In this document: positions 18,272-62,770 of the stretch, piece by piece
Position numbering within the stretch: position 1 is the stretch's first letter
How the letters are laid out: every line of letters begins with the position of its first letter
Assembly: GCA_964016885.1 (NCBI GenBank)
Contig: OZ024746.1
Coordinates: 42,532,001 to 42,596,000 of the forward strand
From: Eledone cirrhosa
Lineage: Eukaryota
DNA length: 64,000 nucleotides
Reading direction: 5' to 3'
Translations under genes and position numbers: made by a program
The notes under the pieces: generated by a model
Database searches by the model: none
Told to the model about the DNA's origin: nothing
Seen by the model: the letters and a program-made list of their open reading frames with translations, nothing else

Positions 18272-20997
18272 ATATATATATATATATTATATATATATAA
18301 ACAAATAAATATATATATATATGCACATTCTATTACATAGTCTATGGTAATGTCTATGTATCTATAAACTTATGCATATTCAATCCATGCACGTGTGTGG
18401 AAGTGTGACTGTGAATGTGTGCATGTGCTAATACATGCAAGATTATAACTAAAGATTTCTATGCACTTTTTCTTTTTCTTTTAAGGTGTATGAAATGTGT
18501 AATTAATTATCATAAATATCTTTATGAATCTTTATTTATATTCACACACATATATACATATATATCATAAACATGCACATACACACACAGATATATATAT
18601 ATATCATAAACACATACACACACACAGATATATATATATATATATCATAAACACACACACACACACACACAGATATATATATCATAAACACACACACAGA
18701 TATATATATCATAAACACACACACACACACACACAGATATATATATATATATATATCATAAACACATACACACACGTGAATGTATGTATATATATATATA
18801 TATGTGTGTGTATGTGTGTGTGTGTGTGTGCGTGTGTACGCGCGCGCGCGTGTGTGTGTATGCATGTGGGTTGTGATTTCTATAAATACAATATAATTTT
18901 AAACTTTGATTATGGTTATGTTCAGAGACAGAGTTAAAGTATATGCTAAACTTATATTCATAACTTGCCATCCTTTAGGCATCACCGCTGGCAGGTTTTT
19001 ATATCTACAGCTGATAAAGATAAAGTATAACTAGATAGATATAGCCTTTTCAAATGAACATTCTAGTTTTACAAATAAATATTTCTTCATTTCTTTATAT
19101 AGGTATCAATATCTGCATCATATGCAAAAAGAAAAATATAAACAACAATATCATCGAATGCCATATACACCCAGACCTTTATAGAACACTAAATGATGTG
19201 CATTTTTCAACCAAAAATGATAAGCTTCAATACAGAAGAGCTGAAGGAAGAATATAAGATGAAAAAATTAATATAGATACTATTCTGATAGCAAAAAAGA
19301 AAATGCAAAATTAGAAAGAAAACATAATGCAAAAAAGATGACCTCTGAAGGTTATTGGAAAGACTTATAGAATCAAATAAATGTATATCTGATCTTCTGT
19401 AAATCTGTAGCTAGAGAATAGTAAAGCAGCCTTGTGACAGAGTGAACAGAAAAATATTGTATGCTAAGTTGGACGAATAGCTCACACTGTAGTAGCAATG
19501 TGATTCTAGTTAATTTATTTCAAGTGTACATAACTGCTTTTACAGACAACCATGTGGAAGAACAGCTACACACAGCCTCTGATGTATGCAGCAACCTATG
19601 AACAAACAGCAGATCAATATCTAACAGAATTTGTTTCAGAATGGAATAGCAGCCATCATCCAATTCATTCTCAGTCAAATTTCATATATCTCTGTTTGAA
19701 GAAGCCAGTGTGTAACTATTGTCACGCATTTTCTCTTCAAATATAGACATACTTATGGAGTAACGGCGCCACTGTACAATGAATCACATAGACTGATCAA
19801 CAGAAAACAGCTTGAATAATGAAGAAAAAGAGACAGAATGAAGAAATAAAATGAAAAGACAGAACTTTGGCAAAATCCCAGTCAAATCATATTGAATGAA
19901 AGATATCACAACTTTTATAATACTGGTTACCTACCCAGTGATGATATGGGTTAGAAATACATTTTTAATATTATATAACATCAATTTTGTATATATTCCT
20001 TTATTCTTTTACTGGTTTCAGTCATGAGGCTGTGGCCATGCTGAGGCACAATCATGATTTAGTCGATTATATTAACGCCAGTACATTTTTTATCAATGCT
20101 TTTTGTCTAACTGTTAAATATGTGTATATATCTATATATAAATGGATATATATAGACATATACACACACATATATATGTATAAACACATATTCCTTTACC
20201 CCCATCTAATGCATCCTCTGTGCAGATGTGACCCCTGGAACAACAATACCCACCACCATCATCATCATCGTTCTTTAATAAGAATTGTCATCATATCATT
20301 TCTGTATCCCTCCATTCTGAGGCTATCCCACCACTTTTTCTCCCACAACACCTTATTAAACACCTCTACAGCTGTCATAAAATCATACTTGTCATCTTTT
20401 CTCGCCCCTCTTATTATGACCACCTGAGCATGGCTGTTTTAGGATAAAGCACCCCCCCCCCCCTGCCACAAGATGGGAGGGCTCTTCAGGCAAGTCAATG
20501 ACAGAACTGCCCTAGTGCTGGTGCCATGATAAAATGTACCCAGGATTCTCTGTAAAGAAGTTGGTGTTAAGATGAACATACAGTCACAAAAATTATGGCA
20601 AAGGCATTGAGAGGATTCTTCAGTTGTGTCAAAACCAGTTCAAATTCTCTAGTGCTGATGCCACAAGAAAATACATCCAGTACACTCTGTAAAGTGGTTG
20701 GCATTAGAAAGGGTATCCAACCATAGAAATTATGAAAAAACAAGAGTATGAGATGATGCATCAGATGTGTGGATGATATGACAACATTCAATGTACCCAG
20801 TACACTCTGCATTGTGATTGGTGATAAGATGGGCATCCAACAGTAGAAATGATGCTGGAGCTGGTATGTAAATAAATGAGATGTGGGACCATAGCCACTC
20901 TCTGACAGGAGAACAACTTTTATTAAGTAACCATCCGGCCATCTTAAGCAAGTATGGTGAGATGGATGTTCAATGATGATTCTTATATATATATATA

Positions 20998-21335
20998 TCA
21001 TCATCATCATCATTTTATGTCCGCTTTTCCCTGCTTGCAAGGGTGGGACGGGAACTGATTCTAGCTGGATTTCTATAGATGGATGCCCTTCCTAACACCA
21101 ACCTCATTTACAGTGAGTGCTGGGTGTTTTTTTGCCATGGCACCCCCACGACCACTTTGCAGTGGAATGATATGGATCCCAGTCCCTATCATCTCATTTC
21201 TACAGCTGAGTAAACTGGAGCAATGTGAAATAAAGTGTGTTGCTCAAGGAAACAACACATCACCCGGTCTGAGAATTGAACTCACAACCTTTCGATTGCA
21301 AGGCCAATGCTCAAACCACTAAGCCATGTGCCTCC
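20998..21335 (-). mobile_element. tRNA-derived SINE, family A (CORE/V-like body, RTE-type tail)
   Basis: Minus strand reads ggaggcacatggcttagtgg (A-box)...gagttcaattc (B-box)...ccttgagcaacacact...aggaagggcatcc...(GAT)n. Confidence 0.88.
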
Positions 21336-21336
21336 A

Positions 21337-21380
<44 letters not shown>

Positions 21381-21460
21381 TATATAACGAAGGAAATGTG
21401 GTAAGGAACCAGGTGGACCATAACGCACCAAAGTACTCAATACTTAGGGTAGTAGAGTGG

Positions 21461-21568
21461 GTAATAGGAACAAGTAAGACCCCGACGGCTGAGCTCAATC
21501 CATTTCGACGGAATTAGTCGTCGAAACGGCTTGAGCTCAGCCGTCGGGGTCTTACTTGTTCCTATTAC
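21461..21568. repeat. Fold-back hairpin of a PLE-like terminus carrying the 3' half of a hammerhead
   Basis: ~50-bp inverted arms; GAAACGGCT-TGAGCTC-AGCCGTC at 21523-21545. Confidence 0.75.
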
Positions 21569-21749
21569 ATATATATATATATATATATATGTAGAAGTTG
21601 TATTTAATTTGTTGGAATTCCAACAAACATAAATGTTTATAACTGATATAGAGCATTCAACAGTAAAATGGAGTAAGTATTCCAAGCGAATTTCCGAACC
21701 GTTAAGGTTGATTTCCATGGGTATGTCATTATTTATAAAACAAATTTTG

Positions 21750-21809
21750 TATTTTATCTGATGAAAGTGCACCAAGCTTGGTCGTCCTTGAAATATATAT
21801 AATAAAATA
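21750..21809 (+). ncRNA. Minimal type I hammerhead ribozyme
   Basis: Stem I TATTTTAT/ATAAAATA; core CTGATGA (21758-64); stem II aag...ctt enclosing palindromic accaagcttggt; GAAA (21790-93); palindromic TATATA stem III; AUA cleavage triplet ending 21801. Confidence 0.8.
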
Positions 21810-22346
21810 GATATGGTTTTATAAATATAGTTTCCATTTATTAATATCTTGGTATATAACAAAGAGGGAGGGGCTGAGAGGACCCTTCAGTCAAGACATA
21901 GCACAACATTCTTTCTAGTGCTGGTGACAGGAAGACATGCAGCCATAGAAAGTTTGCCAAACAAAGGGTTGCGAAGACCTTTTGGTTGTGTCAAAGACAT
22001 AAAAACCTTGCCTGTGCACTTGATAGAACATAACACCATATTGAAGTGAAATGCAGACTAACCTGGCATGTCTGTGAGGTCAGTAGCTCTGCTTCAGCAC
22101 TGGCTTGGTCTATGTAGACTTGTCCAAACCTTGCTAAGGGAAACTCGATGTTAAAGGATGATGATTAATTAGATTTTGCCTTGGACAACATCGCTGGTGT
22201 GTGGAAGGGAGATTGGTATGCAAGTGCTGGCTTTCAAAAAAAACAAACAAAAAACAACTTGCTTGGTCATGTGCCTAAGAGGTGACCTTTCTAGGTGTAA
22301 AACTCTTGGTGATTTCATGACTGAAGGAGGTCTTTACCCATCTTCA

Positions 22347-24196: not shown

Positions 24197-24430
24197 GGAG
24201 GCACATGGCTTAGTGGTTAGAGCATTGGCCTTGCAATCGAAAGGTTGTGAGTTCAATTCTCAGACCGGGTGAAGTGTTGTTTCCTTGAGCAGGACACTTT
24301 ATTTCACATTGCTCCAGTTTACTCAGCTGTAGAAATGAGATGATAGGGAATGGGGTCCATATCATTCCACTGCAAATTGGTCGTGGAGGTGCCACGGCAA
24401 AAAAGCACCCAGCACTCACTGTAAATGAGA
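24197..24430 (+). mobile_element. SINE family A, 3'-truncated
   Basis: Same tRNA head and body as 20998-21335. Confidence 0.85.
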
Positions 24431-25194
<764 letters not shown>

Positions 25195-25244
25195 TATATA
25201 TATATATATATATATACACATATGCATACATATATATATGAATG

Positions 25245-29711: not shown

Positions 29712-30920
29712 ATGTATTGCCTTCTCCTCCACTTATTTTTGCTTATATATTTGGTCAGCCTATTCCTCCTACATACACTTAAAGAAAAATTTCCTAACCA
29801 TATTTTTGGGCTTTATCGCGACGATGGTCTAATACTTTCCCATACCACCATAGGCCATAACTTAGATAGATTAAGGAAAGACTTAATAAAAACCTTCGTT
29901 AGTTTTAATCTTAAAATTACTATTGACACTAACCTTTCCAATGTAGATTTCCTAGATATAAACCTAGATTTGCCTACTGCTTCTTATAAACCGTACCATA
30001 AACCTAATGAAAACTTAAAATATATAAATAAAGGCTCTTGCCATCCTCCTATAGTTTTTAAAAACTTTATCCCTAATATTAGCCGTAGGATCTCCACCCT
30101 CTCTTCCTCAGAAGCTATTTTTAATAAGGGATCCCCCTACTATAATAAAGCCCTCCAAAATAGCGGTTTTAGCGAACCGATTAAATACATACCCAACTAT
30201 ACTAATTCTATTAAACATAAAAACAGGAAAAGAAAAATAATCTGGTTCCCCCCCCCCCCCTACTCTCTAGCAGTTAAAACTAATGTAGGCAAAAAATTCA
30301 TAGAGCTCCTAGATAAACATTTCCCTAGAACACATAGATACTATAAGATCTTTAATAGAAACTGTGTCAAAATTAGCTATTCCTGCGGTCCCCCTATTAA
30401 GTCCTATATCATCAACAAAAAATCACCTAGAGAACATAAAAATTGCTCCTGTAGAATCAAAAGTGAATGCCCATTACAAGGTAAATGCAACACCAAAACC
30501 ATTGTATATGCGGCTAAAGTGACAATCATCAGCAACAACCATCCAGCCACCAGTGAACGATATGCGGGTATGACGCAAGACAAATTCAAAACGCGTTATT
30601 ACTCACATGTCGCATCCTTTCGACATCCAGAAAAAAGATTTACAACAGCTCTGGCTAGCAGAATATGGGATTTGAAAGACCAAGGTATCCAATATAAATT
30701 GGATTGGTCAATTTTGAACCAATCTAAAGAATATGCAAGAGGAACAAGAAAATGCACGCTCTGCATAAATGAAAAATATTGTATCTTGCAAAATCTTAAA
30801 TCACCAAAGACCTGCCTGAACACAAAGACGGAAATTTTCACCAGTTGTCCACACATGAAATCACACCTGCTTTCCAGCGCATATAAACTTAACACACTTT
30901 CAGATACTTATCCTCCATAA
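29712..30920 (+). CDS. Penelope-like element ORF, 5'-truncated: RT C-terminal half + Cys linker + GIY-YIG endonuclease
   Basis: GLYRDDGL (RT motif C), VDFLDINLDL, YHKP...YIN..SCHP, CSCR..CPLQGKC linker, IVY...YAGMT...RY.SH (GIY-YIG), CTLC..EK..LN..E...CPH; open 402-aa frame. Confidence 0.92.
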   Translation: MYCLLLHLFLLIYLVSLFLLHTLKEKFPNHIFGLYRDDGLILSHTTIGHNLDRLRKDLIKTFVSFNLKITIDTNLSNVDFLDINLDLPTASYKPYHKPNENLKYINKGSCHPPIVFKNFIPNISRRISTLSSSEAIFNKGSPYYNKALQNSGFSEPIKYIPNYTNSIKHKNRKRKIIWFPPPPYSLAVKTNVGKKFIELLDKHFPRTHRYYKIFNRNCVKISYSCGPPIKSYIINKKSPREHKNCSCRIKSECPLQGKCNTKTIVYAAKVTIISNNHPATSERYAGMTQDKFKTRYYSHVASFRHPEKRFTTALASRIWDLKDQGIQYKLDWSILNQSKEYARGTRKCTLCINEKYCILQNLKSPKTCLNTKTEIFTSCPHMKSHLLSSAYKLNTLSDTYPP

Positions 30921-45700: not shown

Positions 45701-47274
45701 GTGTCCGGGATGATGCCGGTGTACTTAGTGTCACGAATGATCAGAAAAAGGAGGCCTGGAAATGTCATTATGAGAGACTGATGAATGTGGAGAACAAATG
45801 GGAGAGAGAGAAATTACCCTTGGTAGATCCGACAGGGGGACCAGCTATTGAGATTGACGAATATAGGGTCCAAGAGGCAATTAGGGAAATGAAAAATGGT
45901 AAGGCTGCCGGACCATCGGGAATAGTTGCTGAGATGCTGAAGGCATCAGGGGACGTAGGCACTAAACTGGTTGCACACATCATCAATCTATGGTGGTGTC
46001 ATACCCAAAGACTGGTGCAGCAGTATTCTCATAAATTGCTACAAAGGTAAAGGGGATGCTTTGGAGAGGAGCAATTATAGGGGTATAAAACTGATAGATC
46101 AGGTTATGAAAGTGGCAGAAAGGATTTTAGCACAACTAATTAGAGAAAGGGTCAAACTAGATGAGATGCAGTTTGGTTTTGTGTCTGGGAAGAGTACAAC
46201 AGATGCCCTCTTCTTGGTGAGACAATTGCAAGAGAGGTTCTTAGAGAAGAATAAGCCACTATACTTAGCCTTTGTTGACCTAGAGAAGGCCTTTGATAGG
46301 GTACCCGAATCTGTCATCTGGTGGTCCCTAAGGAAGCTAAGTGTTGAGGAATGGCTTGTGAGGACAGTGCAAACTTTGTACAGAGGTACTCTGTAAAGTC
46401 AGGGTAGGAATGGAGTTTAGTGAAGAATTCCAGATACAAGTAGGAGTACATCAGGGTTCGGTCCTCAGCCCGTTCTTGTTCATTATAGTCCTCCAAGCCA
46501 TAACAGAGGAGTTTAAGACTGGCTGTCCATGGGAATTTCTCTATGCTGACGATCTGGTTCTTATAGCAGAATCAGTAGAGGAGCTAGAGAATAAATTCTG
46601 GCTATAGAAACAGCAGTTGGAAGCAAGAGGACTGAGAGTGAATCTAGCTAAGACAAAAGTGTTGATGAGTAGAAAAGAGGACAAAACCCTGATTCCATCA
46701 GGGAAATGGCCACGTTCGATATGCAGAAAAGGAACTGGCATAAATTCTATAAAATGCACACAATGCAGATCCTGGGTACACAAGAGATGTAGCGGGATAG
46801 CAGGCAAACTAACAGGTAGGTAGAAATATGTATGCAGTAGATGTACAGGGAAATTAGACAGTAGAAGTCGCATTGATAGACACATTTTTCAAATGCAGGA
46901 GGGCGCTATAGAAGTGGTGGATAGCTTCCGGTACCTAGGAGATCAGATTAGCATGGGAGGAGGGTGTTCCGAGGCCATAGTATCTAGAATAAGGACGGCT
47001 TGGAAGAAGTTTAGGGAGCTGATTCCTCTGTTGACGAAGAAGGGTTTCTCCCTGCGTACGAAAGGCCGGTTGTATGATGCCTGTGTGAGGAGCGCGATGC
47101 TGCATGGTAGTGAGACATGGGCAGCAAGTGCAGAGGATATGCGATGGCTGGAGAGAAATGAGGCAAGCATGCTCCGTTGGATGTGCAGTGTAAATGTGCG
47201 TGAACGACCCAGCATAAATGTGTTGAGAGAGAAACTGTGTCTGAGAGGCATAGAATGTAGTGTACGGGAGAGGA
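45701..47274 (+). pseudogene. RTE LINE RT fragment (frameshifted, with stops)
   Basis: KAAGPSGI, YKGKGD..NYRGI, QFGF, AFVDLEKAFDRV, GVHQGSVLSP, YADD, FRYLG spread over ORFs 45781-47291; 3' end cut by a PLE terminus. Confidence 0.93.
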
Positions 47275-48648: not shown

Positions 48649-49935
48649 ATAATAATAAATTTGAAGACTAAAATCCAAAGAGGGCTCGATAAGGTTAAAT
48701 AATATGACGTCACTTTCAGCTTATATCTGGAGTCTAAAAGACAACCACACCCAATATAAGTTACACTGGGAGATCCTAGCTAGGGCTAGATCGTATAACG
48801 GAAATAAAAGACCATGTGGCCTCTGCGCCGCTGAGGCCCTGGAAATACTCTACGCCACAGACCACATCTTAAACAAAAAATCTGAGGCAATTTCAGCTTG
48901 TAAACATAAATTGCACAAAACTTTCCTGTATTACAGCCCCACGTTATACCCTAACGGATAGTACGATCTATACGTGGATATTCTACGTCTTGATGTGGTA
49001 GCTAAGTAAGTATATATTACCTGGATGTTTTGTGAAGGTACGTATACCTTCTCGTACGTATATTTGATTGTATATGTTATGGCGTATAATTTTATATATT
49101 CTGGTACATATGGTTTGGTTATGTGTATACGGGAGTTTTGCGTCTGTGTGAGTATGCAGGTTTGTACGTATGTAGGGGGCGTGTACATGAGTACTTCTTG
49201 TTTTGGTTGACTTACGTCTCCGAACATTTGTGTATTTACATGTAGGTATGTGTGTGCGCTTGTTATATGCGTATTTATTTATTTATATACGTTTATTTAA
49301 TTATTTATTTATTTGTATACACGCATACACACACACACATATTTATATGTGCGTGGTTTTGTATACCTATGGTAAGTGTTTTCGCGTATGCTTGTGTATG
49401 TACGTATTTGTATGCGTGTATGTATTTATTTAATTTCTATTACTTCTGTATTGTATTTATTTACTTTGTCCTTAACTCTGAAGCGGAGATTCATTCGGTC
49501 TCCTAGTTAGAATTTTAGTCTATGACTTCTGCTATACCATTTACGTGGTTTTGTCTTTGCGTGCAATTGTTCTCTACGCTCCACATATGACGTATTATCT
49601 TCGTTTTTTTCATTCATTGCCAGAGAACGTCTCTATGAACCACCTAAGAGAACATTAGTCTACGACCTCTTTTATACCATAAACGTGGTTCTGTCCTTGC
49701 GCGTAATTGTTTTTCACCGCTCCTATTAATCACGTATCTTATTCGTTTTTTCCCGTTCTTTGCCAGCGAACGTTTCCACGAACCAAAGTATCGTCTTCCT
49801 GTCTTCTTCCGGTTGCAACGTTTTCTGAAATATCCACTTCTGCGTTTACAGATTGTCTTTGTTAGTTTCAGAAGATCCCGTTAAGGGTGAAAGCAGCGAT
49901 TCTTTGCTTAAACTTTAATCTGTTATTTTAATAAA
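48645..49935 (+). mobile_element. PLE family 2, 3' fragment (GIY-YIG C-terminus + pseudo-LTR)
   Basis: ORF 48704-48961 [11 protein letters not shown]...WEIL...CGLC..E...LNKKSE...CKH aligns by eye to the end of the 29712 ORF. Confidence 0.88.
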
Positions 49936-51870: not shown

Positions 51871-52365
51871 GTAATAGATGATAATATATGATTATATGCA
51901 TCGATATAGACATGTTACTACAAAAACACTTAATCTTGTGAGTGTAAAATAAATGGTTGGTATTAAGAAATGCAGACCTCCAGAGAATCCATGCCAAAAA
52001 TGATACATATGAGTAAGACGACATTCTCTGATGTACCTAGGAGACCTGTAACGTTGAATAAGAACTGACTCAGAACATAATGGTCCATCCAACCTAAGCA
52101 AGCATGGAAGGTGGATGTAAAATAATGGTGATGATAATATAATCTCACCTATCCAATAAACTACTCATCAATAGATTTATAATGCTGAGTTTATATATTT
52201 CTTATTTCAGTGTTTACTCAACAATTTTGGTTTCCTCAATGATAAATACTAGTGGGCACTGTGTATACTGTGTATATTTGAATTAGCAAAACACTTAACT
52301 AAAAGGGAAACAATAAAAAGATAATGAATATGTGCATATGCATATATATATATATATATATATAT

Positions 52366-53541
52366 ACTCTTAGAAAACTAGGCGTTGACGAATGGCTTGT
52401 GAGGGCTATACAAGCCATGTATAAAGAAACAGTCAGCAAGGTTAGAATTAACAACGAATATAGTGAAGAGTTTAGCGTAAAAGTTGGCGTCCATCAGGGC
52501 TCTGTTCTCAGCCCACTACTATTTATTATTGCCCTTCAGGCTATAACAGAGGAGTTCAAGACAGGCTGCCCAAGGGAACTCCTATACGCAGACGACCTGA
52601 CACTCATAGCGGAATCAATGGCCGAGCTAGAGAAGAAATTCCAAACATGGAAGCACGGCCTAGAGTCAAAAGGACTTAAAATTAACCTGGCTAAGACCAA
52701 AGTACTAGTTTGTAGGAAAGAAAACAAGGCGGCGGTCCCTTCTGGGAAATGGTCGTGCTCGGTGTGTAGGAAAGGCGTAGGTAGAAACTCCATTTTATGT
52801 CCTAAATGCAAAGTATGGGTGCATAAAAGATGTAGTGGGATCACAGGTAAGCTAACTAAGAACATAGATTTTATATGTGGCCGGTGCTCTGGTGCAATAA
52901 GTAGCAGCAAGTGCCCACAAAATACTAGCTCTTTCAATTGCGCAGAGGGTTCTATAGAAATAGTGGACAGCTTCCGTTACCTGGGCGATAAAATCAGCAG
53001 TGGGGGAGGGTGCTCTGAAAGTACTGTAGCTAGAGTCAGAACTGGTTGGAAAAAGTTCAGAGAGCTTATACCACTATTAGCTGCTAAAGGGTTCTCACTA
53101 AAAATGAAAGGCAGGTTGTACGATGCCTGCATACGAACAGCAATGCTGCATGGCAGTGAGACCTGGGCATTGTGTGCAGAGGATATACGCAGACTAGAGA
53201 GGAACGAAGCTTGCATGCTCCGCTGGATGTGTAACAGTAATATACGTGAACGGCAAAGCATAAACGAACTAAGGAAAAAATTAGAGATAAGAGGGATCAG
53301 ATGTTGTTTACTCGAGAGAAGGCTACGTTGGTATGGACACGTGATGCGCATGAAAGTCGACAGCTGTATAACAAAGTGCAGGGCAATAAAGATAGACGGT
53401 AGTCACGGAATAGGCAGACCTAGAAAAACCTGGGACGAGCTGATAAACTCCGACATCACACACTTACACCTCTCCAAGACAATGTCACTGGACCGAGACC
53501 TTTGGCGGTACTCAGTAACAGAGAAGACCCGCCTTACCTAA
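52366..53541 (+). CDS. RTE LINE ORF, 5'-truncated but uninterrupted (RT motifs B-E, PHD-type finger, C-terminus)
   Basis: [47 protein letters not shown]; the N-terminal [10 protein letters not shown] of the ORF track comes from the microsatellite. Confidence 0.93.
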   Translation, partial: TLRKLGVDEWLVRAIQAMYKETVSKVRINNEYSEEFSVKVGVHQGSVLSPLLFIIALQAITEEFKTGCPRELLYADDLTLIAESMAELEKKFQTWKHGLESKGLKINLAKTKVLVCRKENKAAVPSGKWSCSVCRKGVGRNSILCPKCKVWVHKRCSGITGKLTKNIDFICGRCSGAISSSKCPQNTSSFNCAEGSIEIVDSFRYLGDKISSGGGCSESTVARVRTGWKKFRELIPLLAAKGFSLKMKGRLYDACIRTAMLHGSETWALCAEDIRRLERNEACMLRWMCNSNIRERQSINELRKKLEIRGIRCCLLERRLRWYGHVMRMKVDSCITKCRAIKIDGSHGIGRPRKTWDELINSDITHLHLSKTMSLDRDLWRYSVTEKTRLT

Positions 53542-58989: not shown

Positions 58990-60002
58990 TAATAATAATG
59001 AAAATATTGTGTACAGTGCTCAGGTGCACTACAACTCATCAAAAGTGTATGTATAGTACATAGGGTAATGTACAAACGTCAGGGAAATGAACACTGCATG
59101 AGTCATGATACAAGTGTGCATGTGTATGGAAGGGGGACATCAGGTGTAGTTTTGGCGAATTTCGGGAAGCATGAGAGTTTTAAAGGATGCAGTGTCTCAG
59201 CAACTAACAACTGACACAGGCAGTTTGTTCCATGCTTCAGCAACTCTAAGCGTGAAAAAATGTTTCCGAAAGTCATGGGAGCTGTGCTGTTTTCTGACTT
59301 TGTAGGCATGCCCACGTGTGTTAGACACATGGAGATCAAAAAAGTGCGCAGGGTCGTTGTTGGCGAGATGGTTAATAACTTTGTGGGTGCTTACCAAGTC
59401 CATTGCCAGACGTCGGAGCTTCAATGAATCCATGCCCAGGGAAGCAAGGCATTCAGAGTATGGTAGGTGTCTGATGGAGGGTATGCACTTGGTTGCACAT
59501 CTCTGAACAGTTTCCAGGAGATCAATGTTCTGAGCAAGATAGGGGTTCCAGACTGATGATGCGAATTCCAAGTGTGGTCGTACAATAGCTGTATACAGCT
59601 TTAAATAGATGGCTGGAGAGCGGCTAACAAAGGTCTTGCTGAGTGATGCCAAGACACCCTTGGCCTTCTTGACAATTTCAGAGATGTGCTTTGTCCAACG
59701 CAAATCGCTGCTGACAGTAATGCCCAGGTCACATTCACAAGAGGGCTTCTTGATATCAGTGTTGTGGAGGGAGTATGTGGATGCTGGATTTTTCCTCCAA
59801 AAATGCATGGTGGTACACTTGTCCACAGCCAGCTTCAGTTGCCAGTCTGTGATCCATTGCTGCATTGTGTCCAGGTTTGATTGAAGGAAAGAGTTATAGC
59901 TTTCAGGATCAGTCCTTTTGATTTCAAGGTACAGCTTGATGTCATCTGCATATTTCAGTACTGTGGCATTCTTTAAGTTGGCATCTATGTCATTAATGTA
60001 TG
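58990..60002 (-). mobile_element. CR1-group LINE 3' fragment (RT C-terminal half)
   Basis: YINDI...KYADDIKLY, DLGITV, VRPHLEFASSVWNP, TRGH.YK, FFTLRV..WNKLP; (TTA)n tail near 58990; 5' end abuts (CA)n. Confidence 0.9.
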
Positions 60003-60051
<49 letters not shown>

Positions 60052-62770
60052 TGGGTCTATAGATAATGCTTTCAAATATTTTGAAATTAGATAGAAGGCT
60101 ATGTTATATTAAACTACCAAACATATAACTAAACAAAGCATTAGTCATGTATAATAGTACTTTAAAGAAGCTAGTACACTGAGTACATCAAGTCAGATTT
60201 CCCTGGCAATGTCACAAACCTGATCATATCAATTGATCTATCCATAGTTAGTCAATAACATGCTACAAAACAATGGTGTACTAACACCATCAAATTCCCT
60301 ATTGCCATATGTGTTATAATATAACACACATGTATATACAGTTAGGTGTTCTCTCACTGCCACCACCACCACCACCACTACCACAACAACAACTTTACTG
60401 CTCCTCTTCCCAACCTCACCTTACTTTCTCCATCGCCCACATTTCTTCACTCCCGCACCTTTCTTTCTATTTCAACATTATTCTTATACTACTGCTTGAA
60501 CTCTTTACTTTCATTATTGGATTCACACACTCATACATACTCTCTCATTCCCTCCACTCAGTCAGTCAGTTATACATACATACACATATTGCATTAGTAG
60601 CTACACATTATGATGAGATGGTCAAATATAAACATTAATTATATATAGACAATCCAATATTTAATGCTGGTCTAATAACTCTATCATTATTAATACAATC
60701 GTTTTCACTAAGAATTTTCTTTCAATTGTATCAGTGCAATGCATACAAAAGAACTATGAAAGAAAATCAAGAAAGGAATGAGAATACGAAAGGTAGAGCT
60801 TATTACTGAGTATGGCTATTACTTCTGAAAAGCTAAGTGAAGAATATTTATTGGCAGAAGTTGAACTATATTTCCTTGACAATTACACATCTCAAAAGCA
60901 ATGACAGAATTGTCATCTGTGGTGTTATGCAGTAATACAGAAGACCAAACTTCCCATGTGCACATGTTGAAATATACATCTAGTACACACTTCTCTTACT
61001 TACCTCCCCTTTCCATACAACTCCAATGCCCTAACACCCATTCCCTTGTTCCACCCCTCACCTGATAAGTGTCCCACCCTAGATCTATCTCTCAAAACCT
61101 CATTCACCTCCCTTCACTCCAGTCCAGACTGTAAAGAGGTAATTTGTGGTGCAATGACAAAATCACCCAGTTCACACTGTAAAGTGGTCATGTAGGTTTC
61201 ATGACAAAAGCACCCAGTCCACACTGTAAAGTGGTCATTTTGGTGCCATGATATAAAGCACCCAATACACACTGTACATGTGGTTGGCAATTAGGAAAAG
61301 CAACCAGCTGTAAAAGCCAAGCCCAAATCGATCCAGTGAAGTATTACAGGCAAAATATGTCACTGTCAATATTGAAAGGATCATAGAAAATCTGCACAAA
61401 CATCAAGATCAATTTGACTCTCTGATGCGACTGAATTAAAACATATCACTAACAGTATGCAAAGCAAAATTAAATTACAAACAAGTGAGAGCATGTGAAA
61501 GAATTATGTTGATGTGTACCAGTCAAGAGATAAAGCCAGTTTTCTTTTTTTAAAAACAAGAGGGACTTTTTAAATCTAAATATTTCCATGCAAATTATTT
61601 GCAAACTCATTCTCATAGTTTTATATGAGGAGGCTAATAAGAGAAAATGCATAAAGTACAAGGAAATATGATAGAAGTGTCTGAACAGAGGCTGGAAAAC
61701 ATAGTATGAACCTTTTGAAGTGGGATGTAGATGCTTTGCAGGACTCTCACTCAACAAGGTCCTCAGCTGATTGGGTTTTACTGGAGCAGAGAAGAGCTAT
61801 TTGGTCTGTGAGTTAAGCCACAAAGAAAACTACCAGCCAGCTTTGGATAAAAAGAACTGACCATGGCCGGTTGTTGCTGAGATGCAAGTTGGTACTGGAT
61901 TAACACTGACTGGGTTGCCTGGGCAAGGATGTATGATGATGAACGACGAAAAACAGTGAATGACGCCAGGTCATATCATTGACGATATGCTGAAGGATAT
62001 ATTTTGCATATTCTTTTTGTCATATAACAAATGACAATAATTTAAGGGTGGTATGAAAGCAGAGTAATGAACTTTGTCATGTAGCAAATGATAAACTAAA
62101 TTTACAAACATTTATCCATTATATTAAACTCATATTTCTAAAGATACTAAAAACTGGAATTTATTTCAATCTTGAAAAAAATGTAATTATTAACACACAT
62201 CACACATGAAACTAAAAGGCTTTCAGATTATTAAATGCATAACATATTGACCAATAAAAGAGAACTTCCTTGGCCATCTTCTTAGAGCAGATGTTCATAT
62301 TTCAATGAAGGCTGAAGATATTTTCTTGTTTGAATATATCTAACATAAAAGACTTTATCCTTGTTTTCTTTTTTTTTCTTTAGTTACTTTACTAAAAGAG
62401 CTAGACAAATGATGGAGACATCATGTAAATATATAATCTAATAAACATTTTTTTTAGAATGGGAGTATAAAGAATAAATATTTTAAAGGGAAAATGATTC
62501 TATATATTTAACTTTTTTTGTTCAAGAAATAATACAGTCTACATGTAACAGGCAATTCAATAAGTAACTAGTTATAGTAGCACTATAAAATATTTTGGAC
62601 AACTTCCATATTTCAGATAGTTATATTTGGCAGTGTAGTGAAGAAACAACAATAGTTGTTTCTTCAATTGCCAAAAGAGCAGAGGTGAAGGCAAAACAAG
62701 CTCTTAATTTCTCAGTGAATTCTACTGTGCATGAACACACAAACACACATATATATGCACACAGACACAC

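Follow-up and report, generated by a model that had tools for sequence, protein, structure and literature searches.

The hammerhead ribozyme motif at positions 21750–21809 of the window (the whole stretch of Eledone cirrhosa DNA that was analysed, 64,000 nucleotides) lies within an element that, judged from its sequence and that of its relatives, is almost certainly a high-copy Penelope-like element (PLE) of the Hydra clade; we name it family A. The window copy is a truncated head-to-head insertion into (TA)n, the two arms of which are likely to have been reverse-transcribed from two points downstream of the ribozyme, not from the cut end of its RNA. We name these points E1 (~+50) and E2 (~+140), both numbered from the predicted hammerhead cut. 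The parts of the insertion and its immediate neighbours are as follows:

21591..21852: the whole insertion, a head-to-head pair of two 5'-truncated family A leader/pseudo-LTR (pLTR) arms, flanked by (TA)n to its left and by a short (TA)3 to its right
21591..21683, minus strand: inverted arm, the ~90-nt 'tail', from E2 (21591, ~+140 from the cut) back to ~E1; 84% identical to L083 358-452
21685..21852, plus strand: sense arm, from the 5' hotspot (~-120 to -135) via the hammerhead to E1 (21852, +51); 86% identical to both L083 pLTRs
21750..21809, plus strand: minimal type I hammerhead motif, expected from its sequence to be cut after 21801
21793..21800, plus strand: self-complementary stem III A-UAUAUA-U, 8 nt, all A-U, which differs between subfamilies and families
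21771..21782, plus strand: 12-nt palindrome inside stem II, exclusive to the window copy (1 of 148 distinct family hammerheads)
21655..21674, minus strand: hairpin 1, RCUC-helix-UU-GAGY, with one mismatch in the window copy; in the element RNA it lies ~7 nt 3' of E1 and is a proposed docking site for the reverse transcriptase (RT)
21569..21590: (TA)n target at the E2 end, window sequence
21853..21858: short (TA)3 at the E1 end, window sequence
21388..21566: head-to-head pair of family B, a second Hydra-like family, with a long and a short arm, next to the family A insertion
24430..24760, minus strand: inverted duplicate (89%) of 21340-21678, with a family A tail that has an intact hairpin 1 (24434-24453, plus strand) and a family B pair
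21388-21566 and 24535-24697: window copies of family B, a second Hydra-like PLE also found at loci L289-L303

The two arms of the window insertion meet at ~21677-21685, and at either outer edge a 3' end of the element faces (TA)n. Both arms match the pLTR of L083, an ORF-bearing relative described below. The sequence-only reading of the motif as a minimal type I hammerhead of a PLE pLTR with a palindromic stem III was right. That reading was also right about the (TA)n neighbourhood, in that the window copy is flanked by (TA)n and its family inserts there, and about the lack of an adjacent ORF: no long family A ORF lies beside the motif.

The motif folds on the plus strand at 21750-21809 just as had been described for it: stem I has 8 bp (21750-21757 with 21802-21809), the CUGAUGA core occupies 21758-21764 and GAAA 21790-21793, stem II consists of 3 bp (21765-67 with 21787-89) around the 12-nt palindrome, stem III is UAUAUA, and there is an AUA triplet. 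It thereby has all the features of a minimal type I hammerhead, namely a CUGANGA + GAAA core, an NUH triplet, stems I and II, and a palindromic stem III. The motif occurs once across both strands of the 64 kb, and 0 times in 60 order-2 Markov shuffles. Its stem II palindrome apparently arose by loss of a 5-6-nt stem II loop. The 10.1-11.1 position is A-U in the window copy, the usual G-C being absent; this A-U pair is found in families A and C, and G-C or G-U in other families. The G10.1-C11.1 pair is usual, yet it is no requirement in the cited hammerhead descriptor. The proposed check with hammerhead models came back empty: Rfam gave no hammerhead match for the motif, neither at the gathering score nor at E<=10, and its matches for the window are hairpin look-alikes alone, all under the gathering score.

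The minimum-energy fold of the monomer is a competing structure and not the active hammerhead (free folding, z -1.47); forcing stem III in the monomer costs ~2.9 kcal/mol, and the stem III dimer duplex of the window copy is worth merely -3.2 kcal/mol. That the monomer does not reach the active fold by energy alone is expected for dimer-type hammerheads (PMC4209133). Cutting by the ribozyme would require a dimer or help from protein, and the motif would ride along in the copied leader. RNAalifold recovered stem II alone from the hammerhead rows, two of which were misaligned and were dropped for later alignments. In an alignment of nine hammerheads from several families, with rows that were hand-picked and are related, 96% of cells are paired and 12/17 pairs contain double changes, and 0/500 shuffles paired as highly. 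The UAUAUA, UAUGUA and UGCGCA versions of stem III are all self-complementary; UAUGCA, seen in one insertion, is not. The hammerheads of metazoan PLEs described by Cervera & De la Pena 2014 (PMC4209133) share with family A the type I fold, the palindromic stem III and a predicted dependence on dimers; the window hammerhead differs from them in its longer stem I (8 bp), its A10.1-U11.1 pair in place of G-C, the lack of an unpaired base after position 9, and its 8-nt palindrome. Most of the PLE hammerhead motifs in that study are single, and are probably from truncated PLEs (PMC4209133).

A search of the 3.0-Gb genome from which the window comes gave 3,236 candidates, of which 40 were scored: the window, and 39 places at 82-92% identity. 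The exact 24-nt hammerhead pattern has 3,883 genome matches, against 0 for the reversed control. At L083 (C1:12.38 Mb), two hammerheads 3,676 bp apart surround a broken ORF in which YRDD, the CxCx5C linker and GIY-YIG can be recognised; the last of these is the only domain that Pfam found there, with an E of 1.5e-4 and 22.4 bits, just under the cut-off of 22.6. There are at least 150 copies of the family A ORF, ~79-100% identical in amino acid sequence. One of these (L175) is a 743-aa frame with YRDY at the RT site, in which Pfam found no domain, and which has 24 database relatives that are 28-40% identical, one of them named from Argonauta. In full-length copies the sequence of the ~90-nt tail leads on into the ORF, whose ATG is 195 nt after the hammerhead cut, and the unit of ~3.7 kb includes a ~1.2-kb AT-rich 3' region. 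As in EN+ PLEs, a single ORF with RT plus GIY-YIG at its C terminus lies between pLTRs (L083, L175), and the copies exhibit 5' truncation, inversion and a tail at one end; their variable 5' ends are as expected of truncated PLE insertions.

The 3,883 copies, together with relatives in which pLTRs surround an RT/GIY-YIG ORF, therefore make the window motif neither an orphan nor a retrozyme. It had been read as an orphan, and as a third, ORF-less family akin to PLEs or retrozymes; it is instead one of thousands of copies of a sequence that elsewhere flanks RT/GIY-YIG ORFs, and the head-to-head insertion that holds it is 5'-truncated and stems from a Hydra-clade PLE with an ORF. Non-LTR retrozymes (bioRxiv 10.64898/2026.07.22.740005) do resemble the window piece, being ORF-less, derived from PLE pLTRs and equipped with a type I hammerhead. 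They form head-to-tail tandem arrays, whereas those family A copies that we examined lie dispersed, as lone arms or as head-to-head pairs. We dropped this identity in view of the single hammerhead in the window, the head-to-head or lone arms of the sampled loci, and the existence of an ORF-bearing parent.

Family A was assigned to the Hydra clade by its motifs, following the definition of Craig et al. 2021 (PMC8557442), and not by an RT tree. Its ORF contains RLRWR, SDKT, CxCx5C, CxxC..E and CKH, and no cysteine pair inside GIY-YIG. The published clade has in common with it the C-terminal GIY-YIG, RW(K/R), DKT and the CxCx5C linker, the absence of a cysteine pair between GIY and YIG, and the C-terminal CxxC and CxH; also shared are a hammerhead in the pLTR, insertion into (TA)n, inverted 5'-truncated copies, and a tail at one end (PMC8557442). 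Both (TA)n insertion and a canonical hammerhead, as expected of the clade, are found in family A. The L083 unit, at 3,676 bp, exceeds 3 kb; Hydra elements tend to be shorter than this, which is no strict criterion (PMC8557442). Family A also differs in its tail of ~90 nt, against 30-40 in the Hydra clade, and in its thousands of copies. Octopus bimaculoides is already known to carry the clade, with a preference for (TA)n; the hammerhead of Hydra-1_Obim, the sole octopus Hydra listed in PMC8557442, differs from that of family A, and we regard it as a separate family. A Neptune-like identity for the ORF was dropped: the CX2-5CxxC linker of Neptune/Nematis, CCHH and DKG are all absent.

Family A arms end at two fixed places. 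For the main sample we took 87 loci with the exact UAUAUA pattern, all lying within the first ~120 Mb of contig C1, and added the window. Of its 162 arms, 149 terminate at E1 or E2, and in 128 of these 149 a (TA)3 or longer tract follows directly. The ends are also strictly paired. Among head-to-head pairs classified by BLAST, the window excluded, 40 are E1+E2, one is E1+E1 and none is E2+E2, with 8 unclassifiable; when BLAST was made stricter, just 27 pairs remained. By nhmmer, 41/43 are E1+E2 (p 1e-10 vs 0.5), with 8 more unclassifiable, and for an exception, L137, we predicted a full-length arm ending at E1; the extended locus (L227) confirms an E1+E2 pair. All 11 long pairs in 30 ORF-region loci (classified by eye; two of them, L227 and L228, overlap with loci of the main sample) and all 11 classifiable pairs in 30 loci of family C (by eye) are likewise E1+E2, as is the window copy.

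The 5' ends of the arms cluster at ~-100 to -135 (17/40 E2 arms, 19/27 E1 arms), where the full-length arm of L227 also stops. No 5'-truncation hotspot is present at the cut site, within 10 nt of which lie the ends of 2/40 E2 arms and 0/27 E1 arms. The hotspot near -125 is possibly the transcript start, or 5' end of the RNA, or else a place where the RT stops; in the window (~21685-21710) it is directly upstream of a small conserved hairpin.

A bulged hairpin, RCUC-helix-UW-GAGY, starts 5-9 nt 3' of each end in three families; the chance of this motif is 0.001 per point. After E1 it is found in 35/44 distinct sequences of family A, 9/10 of B and 7/8 of C, and also in two copies of a fourth family. 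After E2, it is present in all six family A copies that continue into the ORF leader, and in one of two distinct sequences of family C. For family B, the hairpin after E2 was predicted beforehand, and the genome search gave 325 matches (reversed control, 0), which represent one sequence type among the 100 listed of the 325. In families A, B and C alike, the hairpin after E1 has A-U as its outer pair and the one after E2 has G-C (the anchors fixed the first base), and the inner helices (CAG/CUG, UAC/GUA, CUA/UAG) are family-specific with pairing kept. The hairpins have little stability (-2 to -6.5 kcal/mol); all three inner pairs are formed in no more than 21/61 family A E1 hairpins, and the E2 hairpins of A and C have one inner pair. 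Inspection by eye of published Hydra consensi revealed the motif in 3/6: followed by AC, it is in the tails of Hydra-2_Amil (coral) and Hydra-2_Ajap (sea cucumber), as well as at two places in the Hydra-1_Ajap (sea cucumber) leader. Hydra-1_Crog has a near match, the site is beyond the end of the Hydra-1_Amil consensus, and we did not see the motif by eye in the published Hydra-1_Obim consensus. The main text of PMC8557442 makes no mention of twin hairpins or of strict E1+E2 pairing, and we found no description of either in the PLE literature searched, the coverage of which leaves out many subscription journals. A tail at one end, and inverted copies, are already known qualitatively.

PLEs are the sister group of telomerase. 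In the twin priming of L1, both nicked strands prime on the RNA, which yields an inverted 5' segment, and the second primer anneals at variable internal sites through microhomology. In family A, by comparison, both sites are fixed, and they are marked by a repeated RNA motif. We consider it reasonably probable, from these sequence comparisons, that family A uses a combination of docking and twin priming. The element's protein, probably as two units, would bind the two hairpins and would use its GIY-YIG/CxCx5C region to nick a (TA)n tract on both strands; with uncleaved RNA as template, extension would begin at E1 for one strand and at E2 for the other, and the cDNAs would stop randomly or at the hotspot near -125, then be joined head to head. 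The E1-E2 stretch would constitute the PLE 'tail', and short copies such as that in the window would be run-offs of the leader. A prediction of a two-copy complex (residues 3-480, without alignment) gave no verdict, at a score of 0.00. There is a parallel in PAc (Poseidon, Anolis; Frangieh et al. 2024, PMC11167929), which has AT-rich targets and two internal start sites bounding its tail, like family A: in vitro, both strands are cut and extended, reverse transcription starts internally at these two sites, RNA 3' of the start is required, the hammerhead is dispensable in that its mutants still insert, and a dimer is predicted. On the other hand, PAc is from another clade, its start sites are within the ORF, inside a stem loop rich in AC; the start site is without strand difference, and in the available text of PMC11167929 no strand-specific use or duplicated docking motif is reported. 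The wider proposal that in Hydra-clade PLEs, from corals and sea cucumbers to Eledone, two hairpins position two RT-endonuclease units on one RNA, with each (TA)n strand primed at a fixed site of its own, and that the PLE tail and the inverted pLTRs generally arise in this way, seems to us evenly poised between right and wrong.

The head-to-head layout could also arise if cDNA from E2 were to snap back and prime itself, with the endonuclease resolving the product at E1 and short arms resulting from later deletion within the palindrome; the hairpins would then mark sites of DNA cleavage or resolution, and not of RT docking on RNA. Self-priming has been proposed for head-to-head PLE copies (PMC3846280), as has endonuclease-mediated resolution for the tail (PMC8557442), and this course would fit both the many pairs that end at nearly one 5' point (-100 to -135) and the greater than average likeness of partner arms: the mean arm-to-arm identity in 10 pairs is 0.967, vs 0.929 (median) and 0.983 (best) for other arms. 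However, the arms do not overlap in 10/40 pairs and in the window copy, and therefore neither arm was copied from the other, although fold-back survives if these are later deletions. Furthermore, some ~3.7-kb E1 arms have E2 partners of 40-100 nt, and E2 arms show a slight excess of stops at +45..+75, the place that an E1-bound complex would occupy (7/23, p 0.04, post hoc). On balance we think fold-back unlikely. We give still less weight to two separate RNPs that prime the two strands, each on its own RNA, with E1 and E2 as alternative sites and their pairing due to an asymmetric complex; this strikes us as very improbable. It is true that the E2 arm reaches past E1 in 30/40 pairs, so that either one RNA was copied twice by displacement or two RNAs were used, between which the arm-to-arm identities do not discriminate, and that two RNPs would make strand displacement unnecessary; nor are partner arms always mutual closest matches (3/10). 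But independent choice of sites predicts ~50% mixed pairs, vs the 40/41 observed, and the two-RNP model therefore needs added asymmetry. The hairpin-docking step is common to that model and to the docking and twin-priming mechanism that we prefer.

It had further been suggested that the cut hammerhead end (...UAUAUA) pairs with nicked (TA)n, and so primes reverse transcription in an ORF-less family. Read-through past the cut is the rule: 3,312 of the 3,883 copies match the pattern exactly. Only 18 run on into TA at the cut, and three of these are internal slippage, which leaves ~15/3,883 (0.4%) that end at the cut in (TA)n. This is some three times the rate at an internal control tract, ATATA (13 junctions vs 8,543, 12 of the 13 viewed; odds ratio 3.0, Fisher p 0.005), and far above that in the UGCGCA family, C (one junction at the cut vs 21,234). 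The TA tract does attract rare junctions; however, the control tract is shorter, and the excess is accounted for just as well by deletion between TA tracts as by priming. Moreover, four of the 15 cut-ending copies have a head-to-head partner arm that starts at E1 or E2, downstream of the cut, more than 99% of copies do not end there at all, the element/(TA)n junctions of family A being ~50 and ~140 nt downstream, and family A possesses an ORF. Cleaved-end priming is thus refuted as the main route by these counts; it would be at most a minor one, used by <0.5% of copies, and as an explanation for the family we consider it extremely improbable.

Nor is stem III fixed as a TA repeat. In a sample of 30 loci that were anchored downstream of the cut, and so are independent of stem III, we found 12 UAUGUA, 8 UAUAUA, one longer UA run, two UAUGCA and 7 unparsed, which makes a pure UA repeat in 9/30. 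Families C (UGCGCA) and B (GC-rich stem III) insert into (TA)n with the same layout as A, and nearly all of the published Hydra families target (TA)n, with no stem III listed in files S1/S2 of PMC8557442 that is a TA repeat. For these reasons, (TA)n targeting is most likely accomplished by protein; a role for the linker in targeting has been proposed (PMC8557442). These comparisons show (TA)n targeting to be independent of the ribozyme's stem III sequence.

Family C (L247-L276) is the more numerous relative: one 29-nt pattern of it has 21,234 exact matches, ~5x family A. Its ORF is 55-57% identical to that of family A, against 42% for family B. We dropped the view that family B has no hammerhead, since a U3-A8 core variant is present (UUGAGAA in 10/12 and UUGAUAA in 2/12 parsed), with a long stem II, a GUC triplet, and a GC-rich stem III; this stem is stable, at 5-6 bp, and so the ribozyme may cut as a monomer. 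Family B also forms near-identical 3.54-kb tandem arrays with long open frames, which suggests recent activity. At C2:356030062-356030706, one strand carries three family B leader matches at a spacing of 299 bp, which may form a retrozyme-like array in head-to-tail order. At least four more hammerhead families occur in (TA)n (L011, L014, L027, L187, L028/L029, L015/L024), with UAUAUA, UAUGUA and CUAG as stems III; their stems I and II covary, and in many (TA)n tracts the insertions of several families are nested.

The window ribozyme by itself is ordinary; twin priming, if true, would explain the PLE tail and the inverted pLTRs. The thousands of family A copies amount to a natural mapping experiment for the poorly understood replication cycle of PLEs. 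The near-absolute E1+E2 rule, with a ~20-nt motif beside each start site, offers a concrete and mutable target that makes the PLE insertion mechanism directly testable, and the tandem copies of family B with long open frames make such a test practical.

The window contains further traces of these and related elements. The 3' half of the family B hammerhead is at 21523-21550 (plus strand). The inverted duplication carries both PLE scraps, and the flanking SINE-like copies are inverted too (20986-21386 vs 24798-25200, 95%). Remnants of Hydra-like PLE ORFs are present at 29712-30917 (plus strand; with YRDD and CxCx5C) and 48707-48931, and are 37-39% identical to the family A ORF. Pfam also identified RT fragments at 52303-53538 (plus strand), 59200-60108 (minus strand) and 45959-46393 (plus strand), the first of which is followed by a PHD finger.
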